A program made the position numbers and the translations under genes. Shown here piece by piece: positions 1-6,386 of a stretch of 6,386 nt of DNA; the first letter of the stretch is position 1; every line of letters starts with the position of its first letter. Below the pieces are notes generated by a model that did no database searches, was not told the origin of the DNA, and saw nothing but the letters and a program-made list of their open reading frames with translations. The DNA comes from a virus (lineage: Duplodnaviria; Heunggongvirae; Uroviricota; Caudoviricetes): positions 1 to 6,386 of the IMG/VR virus record IMGVR_UViG_2529293138_000005. One strand, written 5' to 3'.

Positions 1-288
1 ATGAAACTTAAATATTCTGGCTTAACTGCCAGCGGCACCGCTCGGCCTGAAATCCGTAACGGCGATATTTACCGCGATAAATATGGCGGCATGGTAACGA
101 TTAAAGGCGTGGCAGAACGGCGCATCACCTACCGCCGTGAAGGTTACGAATATGATTGCGTGATGCCTGTTTATCAATTCCGGCGTGATTTCACGCTGGT
201 AGGCCAGCGTAAAGCCGTTAATCAGAAACGTGCAACAGGTTATATCCGCAAAATCCGTGAAATGCTGGTCGCAGGGGGTAAGAAATGA
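1..288 (+). CDS. Hypothetical small basic protein (95 aa); begins at the window edge, so may be 5'-truncated
   Basis: Uninterrupted ORF in the same orientation as the downstream operon. Its stop TGA (286-288) overlaps the next ATG (285-287) as ATGA, suggesting translational coupling. No recognisable family motif. Confidence 0.45.
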   Translation: MKLKYSGLTASGTARPEIRNGDIYRDKYGGMVTIKGVAERRITYRREGYEYDCVMPVYQFRRDFTLVGQRKAVNQKRATGYIRKIREMLVAGGKK

Positions 289-452
289 AACTGGCACCGA
301 ACGTAAAACGATTACCGAAAGATAAATACACCGATGCGATTATTTTTGCGGGTATTGATGCTCACTCATTCGCAGAGCATTACATCATTGCACAGGCCAA
401 AAAAGCAGGCGATCCAGTCCCTCCCGTTTATCTGGGGGCGTTAATCAGTTAA
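285..452 (+). CDS. Hypothetical small protein (55 aa), absent from the supplied ORF track
   Basis: ATG at 285 preceded by a strong Shine-Dalgarno-like GGGGGT at about 273-278. Hand translation gives MKLAPNVKRLPKDKYTDAIIFAGIDAHSFAEHYIIAQAKKAGDPVPPVYLGALIS with TAA at 450-452. Start overlaps the upstream stop. Confidence 0.4.
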   Translation: MKLAPNVKRLPKDKYTDAIIFAGIDAHSFAEHYIIAQAKKAGDPVPPVYLGALIS

Positions 453-502
453 GCGAACTGGATAACCTCCAGATTGTTGATGATGGGCGATACAGGGCGA
501 CG

Positions 503-1684
503 GTGATACGCGCCGGAAATATTGAAGAGCCGCAGCTGTTAACCATCGCCACGAAACTGGCGATCGCCGGAGTCCAGGAGGCGCGGCTACTTTCTGAAAA
601 TTTCGAATTGCTGGAGGAATGGAGCGACCAGCTTCCACGGCTTAGGGAGACATGGGAACGCGGGGAAAGCCTGAGCAACCAGCGAAAAACCACGCTACCA
701 ATGAGCGTGGGATCTGCCGGATACGACACACAACTTGATTACGTGGTTAAGGGAATTATTCCGGCTGTATCGCTTTGCAGCATATACGGGGCGAGCGGTT
801 CCTATAAATCATTCCTTGCCGGATCGTGGGCGTGTCACGTTTCCACTGGCCGCCAGTGGGGATGCCGCAGGGTGGCGCATGGCGCTGTTCTCTATGTGGT
901 TGGTGAAGGCGGTATCGGCGTTCCTCGTCGTGTAAAAGCCTGGGAGGTTGTGCACGGTGAGCAGGTGAAAAATCTGTATCTGGTAAACCGTCCCATCTTT
1001 CCGGCTGCCCCGCTTGATGTTGATGAAATGGTTATCGCTGCCCGTCAGGTGGAACGGGAAACGGGTAAACCTGTACGCATGATTATTCTGGATACGCTGG
1101 CGCGGTGCTTTGGTGGCAATGATGAAAATGATTCCCGTGATATGGGGGCGTTTATCCGTGGGTGTGACGAACTGAAACGACGCACAGGGGCCACGGTGCT
1201 GGTGGTTCACCATTCCGGCAAGGATGAAACAAAGGGAGCGCGTGGTTCCAGTGCATTTCGTGCTTCGCTGGATGCTGAATACCGGATACGCAGGGAGGAC
1301 GCAGGAAGCGAAGCCCTGGTTATCTCATGCACCAAAATGAAGGATGCGGAGGAACTCAAAGAAGCCGCATATGACTTACGCGTGGTGGAGCTTTTTACCG
1401 ACGCTGACGGGGAGTTAATCACGTCGCTGGTGGTGGTGGATAAGCCGCGCCCTCCCGTTGAACTGGAGCGCATCGAGGAGGCTGGCAACAAGACGGAAAA
1501 CCATACCGCGCTATGGGGATGCATACGTTCACGCACACAGAACGGCGACAAGTGCACGATCCCGCTGTTACGTGATGACATGAAAAAACTGGGGTACGAA
1601 ATGAAAAACTTCCGGCGCTGGCTGTACAAGCTGGAAAAAGACAGGGTTATTCGTATCGATGGGGATGATGTAGCGCCGCTATAA
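503..1684 (+). CDS. Replication protein, RepA-like RecA-family ATPase (AAA_25-type helicase/initiator) with a C-terminal extension
   Basis: Motifs read directly from the translation: P-loop-like GASGSYKS, Walker-B-like MIILDTLARCFGG, and HHSGKDETKGARGSSAFRASLDAEY, typical of RepA/AAA_25 proteins. GTG start at 503; an in-frame ATG at 701 is an alternative start. Followed immediately by an iteron-like block. Confidence 0.75.
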   Translation: MIRAGNIEEPQLLTIATKLAIAGVQEARLLSENFELLEEWSDQLPRLRETWERGESLSNQRKTTLPMSVGSAGYDTQLDYVVKGIIPAVSLCSIYGASGSYKSFLAGSWACHVSTGRQWGCRRVAHGAVLYVVGEGGIGVPRRVKAWEVVHGEQVKNLYLVNRPIFPAAPLDVDEMVIAARQVERETGKPVRMIILDTLARCFGGNDENDSRDMGAFIRGCDELKRRTGATVLVVHHSGKDETKGARGSSAFRASLDAEYRIRREDAGSEALVISCTKMKDAEELKEAAYDLRVVELFTDADGELITSLVVVDKPRPPVELERIEEAGNKTENHTALWGCIRSRTQNGDKCTIPLLRDDMKKLGYEMKNFRRWLYKLEKDRVIRIDGDDVAPL

Positions 1685-1860
1685 AGTGAGGTGCAAAAGC
1701 GAGGTGTATAGAAGGAGGGCCAAAATTAGACCGCTACCCCTCACTTTTCGGCCTGTATACATCCTCAAAAGTGAGGGGCAAAAAAATACTTATGAAACAC
1801 ACACATAGAAAAAGCGAAAATCTCAAGCGAGACGGAGCCAGACACTTTAAAAAGTGAGGC
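1682..1860. repeat. Iteron-like repeat block (four copies of an AAAGTGAGG-type motif, one inverted); candidate origin or operator region
   Basis: Motif copies at 1683-1693, 1737-1751 (inverted), 1767-1778 and 1850-1860. Copies 1737-1748 (CCCCTCACTTTT) and 1767-1778 (AAAAGTGAGGGG) form a perfect 12-bp inverted repeat around an 18-nt spacer containing GTATAC. Region is AT-rich and sits directly after the rep stop. Confidence 0.5.
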
Positions 1861-1883
1861 GAAAAACTGAGAGTTTGCGAGAA

Positions 1884-2135
1884 ATGAACAAAATGCGTAG
1901 AGACAGAACAGAGCCAAAATATAAAGCGTTAGACATGACAGAGCACGCTTTAAAGGTGGCAATCAGAACGATAGACCGCCACGCGGGGGAAGGATACGCG
2001 AAGGAACATCCCGACATGATAAGCGCATTCATGACCACAGCAGCGGCAAACTTTGCCACGCTGACAGAACGGGAGATTGCCGAAGCGGAACAGGTAACAA
2101 CCATCAACGTTAAAACCGGAGAGCAGACAGCATGA
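1884..2135 (+). CDS. Hypothetical protein (about 83 aa), translationally coupled to the ssb-like gene
   Basis: ATG at 1884 with GAGAG about 10 nt upstream. The track's GTG start at 1854 lies inside an iteron copy and is less likely. Stop TGA 2133-2135 overlaps the ssb ATG at 2132 (ATGA). Confidence 0.5.
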   Translation: MNKMRRDRTEPKYKALDMTEHALKVAIRTIDRHAGEGYAKEHPDMISAFMTTAAANFATLTEREIAEAEQVTTINVKTGEQTA

Positions 2136-2555
2136 CAGCACAGATAGCGGCTTACGGACGGCTGGTGGCTGACCCGCAGTTAAAGACCACCAGCAAGGGT
2201 ACACAGATGACGATGGCGAGTATGGCGGTCCCCCTTCCGTGCAGCCAGGCAGATGACGGAGCGGCGACGATGTGGTTATCCGTCATGGCGTTTGGCAGAC
2301 AGGCCGACGCACTGGCAAAACAACCACAAAGGCGAACTGGTGAGCGTGGCGGGTAACATGCAGGTAAGTCAGTGGACAGGCCAGAACGGCGAAACGCGGC
2401 AGGGCTGGCAGGTTATCGCAGACAGCGTAATCAGTGCGAGAACGGCGCGACCTGGCGGCAAAAAAGGCCAGCAGGGGCAGGCTACTGATGCACTGAACAG
2501 GGCAAAACAACAGGCGGGTAACGATGATCCGTACGGGGATAACATACCGTTTTAA
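2132..2555 (+). pseudogene. ssb: Single-stranded DNA-binding protein (SSB) gene split by a +1 frameshift near 2317-2324
   Basis: The N-terminal part (frame of 2132) reads AYGRLVADPQLKTTSKGTQMTMASMAV...WLSVMAFGRQADALAK, an SSB OB-fold pattern. The C-terminal part (frame of 2253) reads HKGELVSVAGNMQVSQWTGQNGETRQGWQVIADSVI and ends in the acidic tail DDPYGDNIPF (compare E. coli SSB ...DDDIPF). The two halves are in different frames; removing one A from the AAAA run at 2317-2320 restores a continuous reading ...ALANNHKGELV.... Confidence 0.65.
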
Positions 2556-2571
2556 GCAACGAGTAACAGAA

Positions 2572-2593
2572 GCCGGAGAAGTCCGGCTTTTTT
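2572..2593 (+). terminator. Rho-independent terminator closing the rep-ssb operon
   Basis: Stem GCCGGA, loop GAAG, stem TCCGGC, then TTTTTT; located 17 nt after the ssb stop. Confidence 0.7.
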
Positions 2594-2600
2594 ATGCCCC

Positions 2601-2628
2601 AAAAAAAGCCCGGAGGGTCTTATCGGGC
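2601..2628 (-). terminator. Possible minus-strand terminator; with the previous hairpin forms a bidirectional pair
   Basis: On the minus strand: stem AGCCCG, 11-nt loop, stem CGGGCT, then TTTTTTT (complement of the A-run 2601-2607). No convincing minus-strand gene upstream of it in the window. Confidence 0.3.
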
Positions 2629-2710
2629 TTTTGCATATGAGGTTTTTTTGGTGCGCTGACACACATGATCGGGATAATAATTTCATAATTTGCAACATAA
2701 CTCAATATTA

Positions 2711-2738
2711 TTGCACAAAATGCAATCCTGATTATAAT
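2711..2738 (+). promoter_or_regulatory. Near-consensus sigma70-type promoter with an overlapping dyad, upstream of the head operon
   Basis: -35 TTGCAC (2711-2716), 16-nt spacer, -10 TATAAT (2733-2738). The -35 lies inside the dyad TTGCA-N5-TGCAA (2711-2725), and the -10 lies inside the perfect palindrome GATTATAATC (2730-2739). Confidence 0.45.
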
Positions 2739-2796
2739 CATGACTGGATGAACAATCCAGTTATGATTTTTAAGTTCGAAGAGGAATTTCTTACTA

Positions 2797-3002
2797 TGGC
2801 TGAAGAGAAAAAAGGCGGTGTTTCGGTGTACATAAGCTCCGACATCGTGGAGGCGCTCAAGGAACGCCACCAGCAGAACGTAAAAGCAGGCATTGCGGCA
2901 GGACTTGATCCACTGGCGATGGTTGAGCCGTCAACAGGCTGGCAGGTGCGCGCCTATTTACGTGCGGCGCTGGGCATGAATCAGACTCATGGGGGTGAAT
3001 AA
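2797..3002 (+). CDS. Hypothetical small protein (68 aa) at the head of the capsid operon; possibly a ribbon-helix-helix-like or scaffold-like protein
   Basis: ATG at 2797 with AAGAGGAA upstream. Stop TAA (3000-3002) shares a base with the capsid ATG (3002-3004). The longer track ORF starting at 2631 would overlap the promoter region and is rejected. Confidence 0.5.
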
Positions 3003-4057
3003 TGGCAGGCAAAGCAACGGCACTTACCACTAATCAGCTTTTCACGTACATGAATCGCGGGGATATTGCGGAATTTAAATTCAGTCCGCTGTTTACCACG
3101 CTGTTTTTCACGAACGTGGCGACATTCAGCACCCAAAACATCATGCTGGATACCCTGGACATTGAAGAAGTCACTATGTCGGCGTTTTGTTCTCCTATGG
3201 TTGGCAGCCAGGTACAGCGCGATAAAGGGTACGAAACCAGCACAATCAAACCTGGCTACATGAAGCCAAAGCACGAAATCGATCCAACAAAGACCATCAT
3301 GCGCATGGCTGGAGAAGATCCGGCACAGCTTAACGACCCTACCTACCGCCGTATGCGCCTGATTACTGGCAACATGCGCCGCCAGATAAACGCCATTAAA
3401 GCGCGCGTGGAATGGCTGGCGGTGAATGCGATAACGACCGGAAAAAACATCATTGAGGGCGAAGGCATAGAACGCTATGAAATCGACTGGAAGATACCGG
3501 GAAAAAACATCATAGAGCAGGCCAAAGGCCGTAAATGGTCCGAGCAGGACAAAGAAACCCACGATCCAATCTATGATATCGAGCTTTATGCGGATCAAGC
3601 AGATTGCCCCGCCAACGTCATGATTATGGGCGCAGAGGTATGGCGCACGTTACGCAGCTTTAAAAAATTCCGTGAACTGTACGATCTTTCCCGTGGTTCA
3701 GAATCCGCCGCAGAACTGGCCTGTAAAAACCTGGGCGAAGTGGTGAGCTTTAAAGGCTATCTGGGCGATATTGCCCTTATCGTCTATTCCGGCAAATATA
3801 CTGACAGCGACGGCACCGAAAAATATTTCCTTGAGCCTGATTTGCTGGTCCTTGGCAACACCAACAATAAAGGGCTGGTGGCCTATGGTGCGATTATGGA
3901 TCAGGAAGCGGTAAGAACGGGCGCAACGCAAAACATGTACTACCCGAAAAACTGGATTGAGGACGGCGATCCGGCGATTGAGTACGTGCAGACACACAGC
4001 GCACCGCAGCCGGTTCCGGCAGATATTCGCAAATTTGTTACCGTCAAAATTGGTTAA
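3002..4057 (+). CDS. Major capsid protein, lambda gpE family (351 aa)
   Basis: Collinear similarity to lambda gpE as recalled: FKFSPLF versus KFKFDPLF, TIKPGYMKPKHEIDP versus FTPGYVKPKHEVNP, DPTYRRMRLI versus DPAYRRRRII, FKGYLGDIALIVYSG versus YKGMYGDVAIVVYSG, LVLGNT versus MVLGNT, YPKNWIEDGDPA versus YPKNWVTTGDPA. Strong SD (GGGGGTGA) before the ATG. Confidence 0.9.
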   Translation: MAGKATALTTNQLFTYMNRGDIAEFKFSPLFTTLFFTNVATFSTQNIMLDTLDIEEVTMSAFCSPMVGSQVQRDKGYETSTIKPGYMKPKHEIDPTKTIMRMAGEDPAQLNDPTYRRMRLITGNMRRQINAIKARVEWLAVNAITTGKNIIEGEGIERYEIDWKIPGKNIIEQAKGRKWSEQDKETHDPIYDIELYADQADCPANVMIMGAEVWRTLRSFKKFRELYDLSRGSESAAELACKNLGEVVSFKGYLGDIALIVYSGKYTDSDGTEKYFLEPDLLVLGNTNNKGLVAYGAIMDQEAVRTGATQNMYYPKNWIEDGDPAIEYVQTHSAPQPVPADIRKFVTVKIG

Positions 4058-4068
4058 CGGGGGATTCT

Positions 4069-4404
4069 ATGGACACTCCATACATTGAGTTATTTGCAGG
4101 CAGTCAGCAGGTATCCACGACACTGGTACATTTTGCCGCTGATGCTGGCGTTATTCAGGAATTTACCCCGCTGATGCTGGCGGACAATGGCGAGTTTAAG
4201 CCGTGGGATGGTCAGGAATCTGGCAAGGCTGTTTATCTGACTTCGTACCCAGTGGACACGTCAACGCAGAAATCAGCACAGTGTTACAAGACGGGGATAT
4301 TCAATATTGCCGCCGTTAACTGGCCTGAGAGCGTCGACACCGACGTGAAAAAATGCGCCGCCTTTGCGGGTTCTGGCGTATCCGTTCAGCCGCTGGCGCG
4401 ATAA
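4069..4404 (+). CDS. Head decoration protein, lambda gpD family (111 aa)
   Basis: Similarity to lambda gpD as recalled: TPLMLADNGEFKPWDG versus TPLMLDTSSRKLVAWDG, and YKTGIFNIAAVNWPESVDTDVKKCAAFAGSGVSV versus [44 protein letters not shown] upstream. Gene order E then D is the reverse of lambda (D then E). Confidence 0.85.
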   Translation: MDTPYIELFAGSQQVSTTLVHFAADAGVIQEFTPLMLADNGEFKPWDGQESGKAVYLTSYPVDTSTQKSAQCYKTGIFNIAAVNWPESVDTDVKKCAAFAGSGVSVQPLAR

Positions 4405-4478
4405 GCAGGGGGAACGATGGCAGAAACCCAGGCGATGACGGCGACATCGATCGCATACTGAAAACCATCTGAGACAAG

Positions 4479-4500
4479 GCCGGAGAAATCCGGCTTTTTT
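4479..4500 (+). terminator. Rho-independent terminator after the decoration gene, immediately upstream of cosQ
   Basis: Stem GCCGGA, loop GAAA, stem TCCGGC, then TTTTTT. Differs from the terminator at 2572-2593 by a single loop base. Confidence 0.7.
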
Positions 4501-4572
4501 GCGGGTCCTTTCCGGCGATCCGACAGGTTACGGGGCGGCGACCTCGCGCGTTTTCGCTATTTATGAGCCTTT
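4501..4572 (+). other. Lambda-type cos site 1 (cosQ-cosN), rightward orientation; cosN GGGCGGCGACCT at 4533-4544
   Basis: GCGGGTCCTTTCCGGCGATCCGACAGGTTACG, then GGGCGGCGACCT, then CGCGCGTTTTCGCTATTTATGAG. This is near-identical to the lambda right-end/left-end junction as recalled (...ACGGGTCCTTTCCGGTGATCCGACAGGTTACG | GGGCGGCGACCTCGCGGGTTTTCGCTATTTATGAAAA...). Confidence 0.8.
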
Positions 4573-4574
4573 TC

Positions 4575-4651
4575 AGGTTGGTGGTGGTGGTTTTGTTGTT
4601 CGCTGTATCTCTATGAATAAAAAGGGAAAGATAACCACAAAACACCAACCT
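4575..4651 (+). repeat. cosB-like region of cos 1: inverted repeats around an A-rich spacer, unlike lambda R sites
   Basis: AGGTTGGTGGTGGTGGTTTTGTTGTT (4575-4600) and AACCACAAAACACCAACCT (4633-4651). The 9-bp cores AGGTTGGTG (4575-4583) and CACCAACCT (4643-4651) are exact reverse complements. Lies between cosN and the terS start, where lambda carries its Nu1-binding sites. Confidence 0.4.
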
Positions 4652-4692
4652 GAAGCATTAACTAAGTGTGGGTATTGATGAAATCGCACCTG

Positions 4693-5220
4693 ATGAATAA
4701 AAAAACCATGGCGCAAAGCTGCCGTGTAAGTGCTACAGCGTTCGACAAGTGGGGAGTGACTCCCGTTGAACGTAAAGGCCGTGAGGCGTTTTATGATGTT
4801 GCCAGCGTGATAGACAATAGGGTTAACAATGCAATTAACCAGGTTACAAACGACAAAGGCGATATTGATGATGATGAACTTTTACGCGTAAGAATCAGAT
4901 TACTGACAGCACAGGCGGAGGCGCAGGAGCTTAAAAACGAGCGCGAACGCGGCGACGTGATTGATACAGGTTTTTGCCTGTACGCGCTTTCAAAGCTGGC
5001 GAGCCAGATTTCTTCAATCATGGACAGTTTGCCGCTTACCATGCAAAGGCGCTTCCCGCAGATTACTCCCGCTATGCTGGATGGGCTTAAAAGGGAAGTG
5101 GTTAAAGCCTGTAATGCCAGTGCCACAGTTGCCGACAACCTACCGAAGATACTGGCTGATTACCTGATGGAAACTACCGGAGACGTACCGGAGAAGTTGC
5201 TACAGAAGAAAGTCGAGTAA
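4693..5220 (+). CDS. Terminase small subunit, lambda Nu1-like
   Basis: C-terminal half collinear with lambda Nu1 as recalled: LTAQAEAQELKNERE versus LTRAQADAQELKNARD, GFCLYALSKLASQISSIMDSLPLTMQRRFPQ versus AFCTFVLSRIAGEIASILDGLPLSVQRRFPE. The N-terminal putative DNA-binding region (MNKKTMAQSCRVSATAFDKWGV) is divergent. Start ambiguous: GTG 4666, ATG 4678, ATG 4693 or ATG 4708; 4693 chosen because it aligns with the Nu1 N-terminus. No large terminase ORF follows. Confidence 0.85.
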   Translation: MNKKTMAQSCRVSATAFDKWGVTPVERKGREAFYDVASVIDNRVNNAINQVTNDKGDIDDDELLRVRIRLLTAQAEAQELKNERERGDVIDTGFCLYALSKLASQISSIMDSLPLTMQRRFPQITPAMLDGLKREVVKACNASATVADNLPKILADYLMETTGDVPEKLLQKKVE

Positions 5221-5246
5221 CAGACGCGCAATTATTGAACAAAACT

Positions 5247-5450
5247 GAGAAACGACATGAAAGCGTCATAAATCGCCATTTTAGATGATTACCGTGTCGT
5301 TTCTTTTTATTGTGTATCTATTTAAAAACAAATAGTTATGTTCGAGAATTACCGACATGCTTTTTCCAGAAAAATTTTCATAAACAGATAAAAACCGCGA
5401 GGTCGCCGCCCCGTAACGGGCCATAATTCCAGGAAGGACCCGACGACACC
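5247..5450 (-). other. Lambda-type cos site 2 in inverted orientation (cosN AGGTCGCCGCCC at 5400-5411, i.e. GGGCGGCGACCT on the minus strand), with lambda-like R-site inverted repeats
   Basis: Reverse complement of 5343-5411 reads GGGCGGCGACCTCGCGGTTTTTATCTGTTTATGAAAATTTTTCTGG..., resembling the lambda left end (GGGCGGCGACCTCGCGGGTTTTCGCTATTTATGAAAATTTTCCGG). GAAACGACA (5249-5257) and TGTCGTTTC (5295-5303) are exact inverted 9-mers resembling lambda R-site cores as recalled. The cosQ-like side (5412-5450) is only partly lambda-like. Confidence 0.7.
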
Positions 5451-5475
5451 AGACAATCAGAACATCGGGAACACA

Positions 5476-5760
5476 ATGACAGAAGCCGAACTACTGAAAG
5501 TAATCTGCCGTATTACCGGAATCAGCCAGACAGCAGGCAAACAGGAGGCCACGCAGCCGGACAGCGTGATAGCCGAAAATTACGCGCGTGTGGTGGCTGA
5601 GGTGATGCGCCGTGATGGTATTGAGCTTAACGGCGTGGATATGCGCGACATACGGATCAGAGTTCTGGAGTTGTTGTCATATCGTCGCCGCGTGGAGATG
5701 TATCGGGAGAGCGAGAAAAAGACTTACCAGTGGAAGAAACCGGAGCGGCTGCGTACGTAA
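5476..5760 (+). CDS. Hypothetical protein (94 aa) immediately beyond cos 2
   Basis: ATG at 5476 with GGGAA about 8 nt upstream. No recognisable motif. Arg/Glu-rich C-terminus. Confidence 0.4.
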   Translation: MTEAELLKVICRITGISQTAGKQEATQPDSVIAENYARVVAEVMRRDGIELNGVDMRDIRIRVLELLSYRRRVEMYRESEKKTYQWKKPERLRT

Positions 5761-5933
5761 TGCGTACGGACATCGAGACAAAGACGAACAGTATTCTGGT
5801 TCAGTGCAAAACAACGTTAAACGTGGTTTTGCGTCCAGAGTCATCGTAATGGTTTTATGCGTCCTGCGTTGCGCTGGTGGATTTGAGGGATATAGCTGGT
5901 AGTGGTAAATCCCTTTTGCGTGGCGGTGCGATG

Positions 5934-6021
5934 GCTGCATGGTGGAAATCACCACGAAGGGGAGGTGATAAACACTCCCCCTTTTCGTGTGGTGCATGGT
6001 CAAAATGACCACGGAGGGGAG
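5934..6021. repeat. Two copies of an approximately 30-nt direct repeat (period 57 bp) with embedded hairpins, in a non-coding region
   Basis: GCTGCATGGTGGAAATCACCACGAAGGGGAG (5934-5964) versus GGTGCATGGTCAAAATGACCACGGAGGGGAG (5991-6021). Embedded palindrome TGGTCA-AAA-TGACCA (5997-6011). Imperfect hairpin CACGAAGGGGAG...CTCCCCCTTTTCGTG (about 5953-5989). Hairpin GACTATC-TCAAA-GATAGTC (6026-6044). Confidence 0.4.
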
Positions 6022-6271
6022 AACCGACTATCTCAAAGATAGTCACCCCATACCAGGATCACGCTAATAACGCACAACAGAGTGACCCATAGCCACCCTG
6101 TTCAACCGTTCCGGCTGACTGGACAGCATCATCACCATGATGGTGACGCAGCCCACCAGCAACCATAACGATTTCCTTTACAGCTGATGTGCTTTTTTGC
6201 TGATAAGGCGTAACCAGTTGATTGTTCCAGAATCACCCATTGGGGGAGGCTGGGCGGCCTGCTGTGGGCTT

Positions 6272-6288
6272 TTCCACCATTGGTGGAA
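6272..6288. repeat. Perfect 17-bp palindrome TTCCACCA-T-TGGTGGAA
   Basis: Read directly from the sequence; 8-bp arms around a single central base, typical geometry for a dimeric DNA-binding protein site or a tight hairpin. Confidence 0.3.
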
Positions 6289-6386
6289 AGGTGCACATCT
6301 GGATCATCATTACGGTGATCAATGGTATGTAAAACCCACCAGCCTGATTGACATTTAACCGGAAAAAAGCCAGGTAGCCCCGTCAT

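Follow-up and report, generated by a model that had tools for sequence, protein, structure and literature searches.

Two head-to-head cos sites of different type flank an orphan small terminase gene in a phage satellite beside phoQ of Escherichia coli

The DNA analysed here, the whole 6,386 nt of which we call the window, is positions 1 to 6,386 of the IMG/VR virus record IMGVR_UViG_2529293138_000005, and holds two inverted lambda-type cos sites (named cos1 and cos2), between which lies a small terminase subunit gene (terS). It is identical to positions 40-6425 of AFDZ01000011.1, an Escherichia coli draft contig of assembly GCA_000225205.2, on which phoQ, phoP and purB begin ~0.3 kb (some 265 bp) beyond the end of the window. 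The window contains genes for a DUF4222 protein, a RepA-type helicase, SSB, a gpE-like capsid protein and a gpD-like decoration protein, then cos1, terS, cos2 and an open reading frame (ORF) of 94 aa. In complete E. coli genomes, islands ~90% identical to it occupy the interval from roxA to phoQ, with homologous genes for integrase, AlpA-like, Icd-like and DUF4222 proteins, replicase, SSB, gpE-like capsid, gpD-like decoration, TerS and the 94-aa ORF. For comparison we used two islands of complete E. coli genomes (L001 and L002), the CFT073 locus (L005, from NC_004431) and an island of E. coli SW071618 (L015). The right end adjoins phoQ in the window island as it does in CFT073, L001 and L002; the left junction lies outside the contig of the window, as do int and alpA, both of which are present in L001 and L002. 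The gene order, with no terL, portal, tail or lysis genes, fits a Gram-negative phage-inducible chromosomal island (PICI) of the EcCICFT073 type. The element is a phage satellite, the TerS-encoding version of an EcCICFT073/EcCIIHE3034-family PICI, beside phoQ in E. coli, and not an odd lambdoid genome, as the framing of an earlier note on this DNA implied.

The 12-nt lambda cohesive end GGGCGGCGACCT occurs in exactly two copies in the window, at 4533-4544 on the plus strand (cosN of cos1) and at 5400-5411 on the minus strand (cosN of cos2), 867 bp apart from start to start. None is expected by chance: an exact match was found in 0 of 200 dinucleotide-preserving shuffles of the window, and no further GGGCGGCGACCT-like site turned up in the window itself at two or fewer mismatches. 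Both cohesive ends lie within an inverted repeat (4502-4573 and 5371-5442, 72 nt, 75% complementary). The cosQ heptamer GGGTCCT lies 30 nt upstream of the cohesive end at each site, at 4503-4509 (plus strand) for cos1 and 5435-5441 (minus strand) for cos2, a spacing that is exact in both and as in lambda. When the two window sites were aligned in cos orientation with those of lambda, four other lambdoid phages or prophages and four other island sites, GGGTCCT at -30, GTTACG|GGGCGGCGACCTCGCG and a downstream TTTATGA block were invariant across the 12 island and phage cos sites compared, and the conserved cosN context (GTTACG ... CTCGCG) surrounds GGGCGGCGACCT at both window sites.

The cosB sides of the two sites point inward, toward terS. 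The earlier note had described two lambda-type cos sites in inverted orientation, laid out as cosQ-cosN-cosB1, terS, then cosB2-cosN-cosQ reversed, around an orphan small terminase gene; the exact 12-mers, cosQ, the cosN flanks and the gene assignments below confirm all of this. It was right that the cosB sides face inward, and it missed that they appear to differ in specificity, that of cos1 being island-specific and that of cos2 of the phage type, its three R sites varying together.

Of 5,426 complete E. coli genomes, 487 carry the full 972-bp module colinearly (at least 80% coverage), O157:H7 and O55:H7 among them. Independently sequenced islands have it at three places in the chromosome: phoQ, clpS and tqsA. 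This excludes an assembly artefact or chimera, which had been raised as an option. The option had some grounds, since the assembly behind the window is a draft that contains indel errors in homopolymers, and an independent short-read assembly of a near-identical island (Logan contig SRR17144045_378, here L018) breaks inside cosQ1/cosN1 at the position matching window 4516, as would be expected if cos sequence that is repeated or inverted interrupts the assembly graph. A related explanation would make the inverted pair an invertible switch, the terS segment being turned over when the two 72-nt arms recombine. Yet complete genomes, among them CFT073, IHE3034 and O157:H7, carry the same arrangement in the same orientation, the middle segment is flipped in none of the six islands inspected, and a flip would merely exchange which cosQ-cosN joins which cosB; we regard artefact and switch together as scarcely credible.

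The two-cos arrangement is not new, and the same kind was described and tested in 2018-2019 in the EcCICFT073 cos1-rppA-cos2 region (Fillol-Salom et al. 2018, ISME J, PMC6092414; 2019, Mol Cell, PMC6739421). In CFT073 (NC_004431) the order is a cos at 7558-7569 of L005 (plus strand), rppA (c1503, 144 aa) and a cos at 8297-8308 of L005 (minus strand). These match the cos1 and cos2 sequences in the supplement of Fillol-Salom et al., and the window sites are therefore homologues of the published pair. In that work (PMC6092414, PMC6739421), either EcCICFT073 cos site, when cloned, makes a plasmid transducible by lambda and phi80; deletion of cos1 lowers island transfer, and deletion of both sites abolishes it. 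As a heterodimer with phage TerS, RppA redirects packaging to cos1; it boosts this site only, via the cosB of cos1. Both PICI cosB sequences are called 'completely divergent' from those of phages. The main texts of the two papers do not comment on the relative orientation of cos1 and cos2 ('inverted' and 'orientation' each occur 0 times), and Murialdo and Feiss (PMC9026076) analysed only cos-rpp.

EcCICFT073 belongs to the same island family as the window island, with the same insertion on the phoQ side, gpE-like capsid, gpD-like decoration protein and 94-aa ORF. The geometry is also the same, with cos1 upstream of the specificity gene and on its strand and cos2 inverted downstream, and the cosQ2-cosN2 segment is 93% identical to that of the window. 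The differences lie in what these sites enclose and specify: RppA (144 aa) stands between them in place of the full-length Nu1-family TerS of the window (175-180 aa), with no detectable similarity between the two proteins; cosB1 is unrelated to that of the window; the R sites of cosB2 are of the ATGTCCGG- type and not ATGTCG-; and the cos sites are spaced at 739 bp and not 867 bp. EcCICFT073 also has the 137-aa scaffold-like protein c1501, which the window island lacks. The same module is found in EcCIIHE3034. Its TerS shares the DNA-binding region (93% identity over the N-terminal part, ~90% overall), with 92% identity in the terS region, 85% in cosB1, 99% in cosB2, and the same 867-bp spacing. 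That island differs in being inserted at clpS, not phoQ, and in having a primase-type replicase where the window has the RepA-helicase type. We found no description of the EcCIIHE3034 cos sites in the literature searched, although the IHE3034 and 18098 islands are stated to 'encode TerS' (PMC6092414).

The terS gene occupies 4678-5220 on the plus strand, the position held by rppA in EcCICFT073, and encodes 180 aa from the ATG at 4678 or 175 aa from the ATG at 4693. Its product matches Pfam PF07471 at 82.2 bits (gathering cut-off 30; E=4e-23) and phrog_57 over its full length (residues 1-168, E=1e-49), and it aligns end to end with Nu1 proteins, sharing 34% identity with lambda Nu1 over 178 aa, through the C-terminus. 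Homologues in RefSeq are labelled 'terminase small subunit'. Its N-terminal part can be aligned to the DNA-binding domain of Nu1, although the PF07471 match begins only at residue 28 and no PDB entry for the Nu1 domain was matched. The C-terminal 49 residues are 53% identical to the Nu1 of PhiR5_1, 47% to that of PhiR12_1 and 37% to that of lambda. The possibility that this protein is a variant Rpp is ruled out by the full-length Nu1 match together with the lack of similarity to RppA: BLASTP gave no alignment of the two, and a PDB search, Rpp structures included, gave no match to the window TerS. The window island has no Rpp, a trait of the EcCICFT073-type PICI, and belongs to the TerS-encoding subgroup, as IHE3034 does. 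No terL gene was found in the window or the homologous islands; without an adjacent large terminase gene, the orphan TerS must use the TerL of a helper.

The cosB of cos1 (4572-4654, plus strand) consists of two inverted elements flanking an A/T-rich spacer. The element at the R3 position, TTCAGGTTGGTGGTGGTGGTTTTG, lies at 4572-4595 (cos positions 40-63), and its inverted partner, AACCACAAAACACCAACCTGAA, at 4633-4654 (cos positions 101-122). At their core is a perfect 12-nt inverted repeat, TTCAGGTTGGTG and CACCAACCTGAA (4572-4583 and 4643-4654), extending to elements of ~22 nt. The two lie close to the positions of R3 and inverted R2 in lambda; no equivalent of R1 was found in cosB1, so that cos1 has the R3/R2/R1 layout only in part. 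In four other TerS-type islands cosB1 is conserved at 85-94%, compared with ~40% in the Rpp-type EcCICFT073 island, and among 50,697 phage records it has no counterpart, with 74% for the best match. The TerS of L001 is 90% identical to that of the window, and its cosB1 94%. Judged by these identities cosB1 travels with the specificity gene, and cosB2, as shown below, does not. As a separate observation, the R3-position motif of TerS-type cos1, GGTGGTGGTGGTT (window 4572-4600), resembles the reverse complement of a proposed R3-PICI motif, ACACCACCACCAC, which is that of the Rpp-type cos1 at L005 7605-7625; Rpp and TerS are unrelated in their putative recognition helices.

The cosB of cos2 has the lambda-type layout of R3, A/T-rich spacer, inverted R2 and R1, at the positions these have in lambda; all its elements are read on the minus strand. 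The R3 core, CATGTCGGT, is at 5351-5359 (cos positions 53-61) in forward orientation. Between R3 and R2, at the position of the lambda integration host factor (IHF) site I1, lies the spacer CGAACATAACTATTTGTTTTTAAATAGATAC (5312-5346), which was likened to the lambda I1 region TCATAACTTAATGTTTTTATTTAAAATAC and to an EDL933 prophage cos by sequence comparison only. R2, AAGAAACGACACG, is at 5293-5305 (cos positions 107-119), inverted relative to R1 and R3, and R1, CATGTCGTTTCTC, again forward, is at 5247-5259 (cos positions 153-165), at a distance of 27 nt from the stop codon of terS. An inverted repeat (5239-5257 and 5295-5313) falls within this cosB2.

Three cos2 types were seen among six islands, and within each type all three R elements co-vary, the R cores beginning ATGTCG- in the window, CAGATCC- in L001 and ATGTCCGG- in CFT073. 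Type A, that of CFT073 (R core ATGTCCGGTT), is 93% identical over 179 nt to the PhiR12_1 cos, directly upstream of the Nu1 and A genes; no paper naming the PhiR12 phages was found in the literature. Type B (R core ATGTCGGT / TGTCGTTTC) is that of the window, IHE3034 and STEC17-183; along 44 nt its R3 and spacer share 93% identity with the cos of an EDL933 prophage, immediately upstream of terS and terL, and its R2 and R1 resemble those of PhiR5_1. A scan of IMG/VR for the 20-mer of the window R3 gave no match. Type C, that of L001, L002 and O157:H7 (R core CAGATCC(G/T)TTCT), recurs with the same cores, at the same positions, in the cos of an ST131 prophage beside terS and terL. The phage TerS proteins that belong to these cosB types differ in the putative recognition helix.

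Compared segment by segment, the islands are mosaic. From window to L001, terS is 90% identical, cosB1 94% and cosQ2-cosN2 97%, but cosB2 only 59%; from window to IHE3034, cosB2 is 99% identical. The most conserved segment of the module among islands is cosQ2-cosN2 (93-99%), and the neighbouring 94-aa ORF is at 79-85%. cos2 is thus a complete phage-type cos whose cosB is exchanged as a cassette among islands. In the literature searched, cos2 was not found presented as a canonical phage-type cos with an island-variable R-site cassette, and this is new here, as is the island-specific cosB1 that goes with the island TerS. Two candidate readers of cosB2 were rejected: the island TerS, the DNA-binding region of which is near-identical in islands with unrelated cosB2 types, and the product of the 94-aa ORF, which does not co-vary with cos2 type.

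The same mosaic could be taken to mean that cos2 is a non-adaptive relic, left behind when helper phages recombined with the island at the cosQ-cosN they have in common, and passively carried. The passing of cosB2 among islands (99% for window and IHE3034, 59% for window and L001) would suit a relic, as would the several decayed cos remnants of the L015 island and the dispensability of cos2 for lambda- and phi80-mediated transfer (PMC6092414). But an exact cosN, a cosQ 30 nt away and three R sites that co-vary are retained in every intact island examined; four TerS-type islands have cos1 and cos2 at one constant distance, 867 bp; 487 complete genomes carry the module; and cos2 is experimentally functional in EcCICFT073 (PMC6092414). 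This conservation, with the function seen in CFT073, makes a relic quite improbable.

Our preferred reading, to which we give a probability of about 0.7, is that the module is made of two complete cos sites of different specificity, head to head around terS, and serves two packaging routes, one by island TerS at cos1 and one by helper terminase at cos2. The identity of the element, the completeness of both sites, their different cosB types and the cassette exchange at cosB2 are established at the level of sequence comparison; the steps that follow are proposed. At cos1, the island TerS would bind cosB1 through its predicted N-terminal DNA-binding region and recruit helper TerL through a conserved, putatively TerL-binding C-terminal region, closest to those of PhiR5_1 and PhiR12_1 Nu1. 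The helper TerL would then nick cosN1, and packaging would run rightwards from cos1. At cos2, the unmodified TerS-TerL of the helper would recognise the site and package leftwards, which would serve helpers or conditions where the island TerS route fails. The suggestion of packaging in either direction, made in the earlier note, is in keeping with the EcCICFT073 data, in which each site transduces a plasmid and only the double deletion abolishes transfer.

The head-to-head orientation would stop cos1 and cos2 from acting as an initiation/termination pair, whereas direct orientation would delete or duplicate the 0.87-kb terS segment. In lambda, cosQ is needed only for the termination (completion) of packaging, so the intact cosQ2 argues for complete packaging cycles and not mere binding. 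If both sites were cut on one unit, two complexes would converge across 0.87 kb, an expected cost of the arrangement.

Several points weigh against the two-route reading. Deletion of EcCICFT073 cos2 raises transfer, slightly with phi80 and significantly with lambda (PMC6092414, PMC6739421), so that with these two phages the site is a net cost and not a help; the cost of converging complexes may explain this. Inducing the resident prophages gave hardly any transfer of the IHE3034 and 18098 islands, and no helper is known for TerS-type islands (PMC6092414). No one phage in the collection closely matches the window cosB2, which is matched piecewise, at 72-75% overall. Genomes with a type B or C cos2 usually lack a resident prophage of the same cosB type, and the idea that cos2 type is matched to a prophage in the same genome was not supported (both from searches of Nissle and O157, with one place per record). 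The conservation of cosQ2-cosN2 could reflect a promoter or leader of the adjacent 94-aa ORF, and the reason proposed for the inverted orientation is purely conjectural.

The raised transfer also bears on whether cos2 is a decoy, a phage-type cosB on a multicopy replicating island that titrates the helper terminase and so interferes with phage packaging without being productive itself. Such a role would fit the phage-type R sites of cosB2 and a site kept for some purpose other than transfer, as the deletion result (PMC6092414) would allow, and TerS-type islands, having no Rpp, would need other means of helper interference. A decoy would need cosB, perhaps cosN, and not cosQ, yet cosQ2, at its exact spacing, is best conserved. 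Moreover, the cloned EcCICFT073 cos2 supports plasmid transduction, and the residual transfer of the cos1 deletion mutant is due to cos2 (PMC6092414). The literature searched attributes no interference phenotype to cos2, and we think this role unlikely.

A fuller form of the two-route reading goes further: cos2 would be a horizontally exchanged copy of the entire cos of a helper, offering a second entry in the opposite direction, with cassettes swapped to follow the lambdoid cosB types in circulation, and the head-to-head arrangement would have been selected against cos1 x cos2 events that delete terS. This we hold tentatively, at slightly less than an even chance.

Lambda itself shares with the window the identical 12-nt cohesive end, cosQ at -30 and the conserved cosN flanks. 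It shares with cos2 the positions of R3, A/T-rich spacer, inverted R2 and R1, and the R1/R2 core TGTCGTTTC is common to both. Nu1 follows cos in lambda as terS follows cos1 in the window. Lambda differs in having one cos where the window has two, inverted, and in that gene A follows Nu1, whereas no terL comes after the window terS; the repeats of the window cosB1 also differ from those of lambda and include no R1. Compared with lambda Nu1, at 34% identity, the window TerS has a shorter linker and a 12-residue C-terminal extension. In its way of working the system would resemble the small-terminase (TerS-SP) strategy known from Gram-positive PICIs, the Staphylococcus aureus pathogenicity islands (SaPIs; PMC6092414), in that the satellite's own TerS would pair with helper TerL and redirect packaging; SaPIs differ in using pac sites and headful packaging, while the window system is cos-type and keeps a second, helper-type cos.

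PICIs of the cos type carry virulence and defence genes between enterobacteria, and the mode of packaging decides which phages spread them. The window adds no new kind of element, the two-cos arrangement having been published and tested in EcCICFT073; what it adds is that the same architecture extends to the less studied TerS-encoding subgroup, which ~9% of complete E. coli genomes carry, and that the second site is a complete phage-type cos, contrary to the description of its cosB as 'completely divergent'. The R-site cassette differs between otherwise similar islands, and for types A and C there are identifiable lambdoid phages or prophages that match, for type B only piecewise matches. Phages like PhiR5_1 and PhiR12_1, or with a 21-type cosB, are pointed to as candidate helpers. 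The variable cos2 cassette offers a testable explanation for the retention of two cos sites in these satellites.

Just upstream of cosQ1, a terminator-like hairpin (4476-4500, plus strand; a GGCCGGA-GAAA-TCCGGCC stem followed by T6) closes the capsid/decoration operon. A terminator scan overlooked it; folding confirmed it (-17.4 kcal/mol, z = -3.27), and it is kept in EcCICFT073, L001 and L002. A promoter scan of 4300-5900 found no promoter, and an Rfam scan of the window gave no match.

The 94-aa ORF (5476-5760, plus strand; phrog_1561) always adjoins the cosQ side of cos2. It begins ~65 nt outside cosN2 and is conserved in every island examined, at 72-83% protein identity. It has no Pfam or PDB match, which, with the real CFT073 rppA sitting between the cos sites, rules it out as an Rpp. 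A scan of species-representative genomes with it gave only two distant loci, in Pluralibacter and Edaphovirga, neither with a lambda-type cosN. Between this ORF and the conserved island end (window 5760-6240) there is no convincing ORF and no Rfam match; the stretch is probably a variable accessory region, since its CFT073 counterpart differs in sequence. Several short GC-rich palindromes were noted 3' of the 94-aa ORF, e.g. CCACCATTGGTGG at 6274-6286.

Two of the compared islands show further peculiarities. The L015 island has a DUF1441 protein (182 aa, with a helix-turn-helix) in place of terS or rpp, and its decayed cos remnants, at L015 2400-4000 upstream of the 94-aa ORF homologue, comprise a cosB of type C whose cosN is destroyed, the inverted remnant of a 21-type cos and a cosN-like fragment. 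In CFT073, the EcCICFT073 cos1 (L005 7558) and the cos (44744) of a neighbouring icd-inserted prophage, 'phage 4', have the same orientation and lie 37,186 bp apart. The lower DNA size limit of a lambda-type head is ~37-38 kb; as this distance is close to it, in-situ packaging of the phoPQ-purB-icd chromosomal segment from cos to cos might be possible in CFT073, which is pure speculation.

Between the decoration gene and cos1 (window 4417-4472), the window lacks a 137-aa gene that CFT073 (c1501), L002 and IHE3034 have, and only its first and last codons are left, joined at a short ATGGCAGAAACC microhomology; L001 also lacks the gene. The CFT073 c1501 protein matches head maturation protease profiles in their C-terminal part (phrog_53, E=1e-8), which gives it a scaffold-like (Nu3-like) look. 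Finally, the genes for the RepA-type helicase (285-452 and 503-1684) and SSB (2132-2356 and 2253-2555) are each split in the window. Both are intact in L018 (465 aa and 140 aa; 99.2% identity to the window), from which the window differs by single-base homopolymer indels at 434, 443 and 2322; the splits probably reflect errors in the sequencing of this draft and not true pseudogenes.

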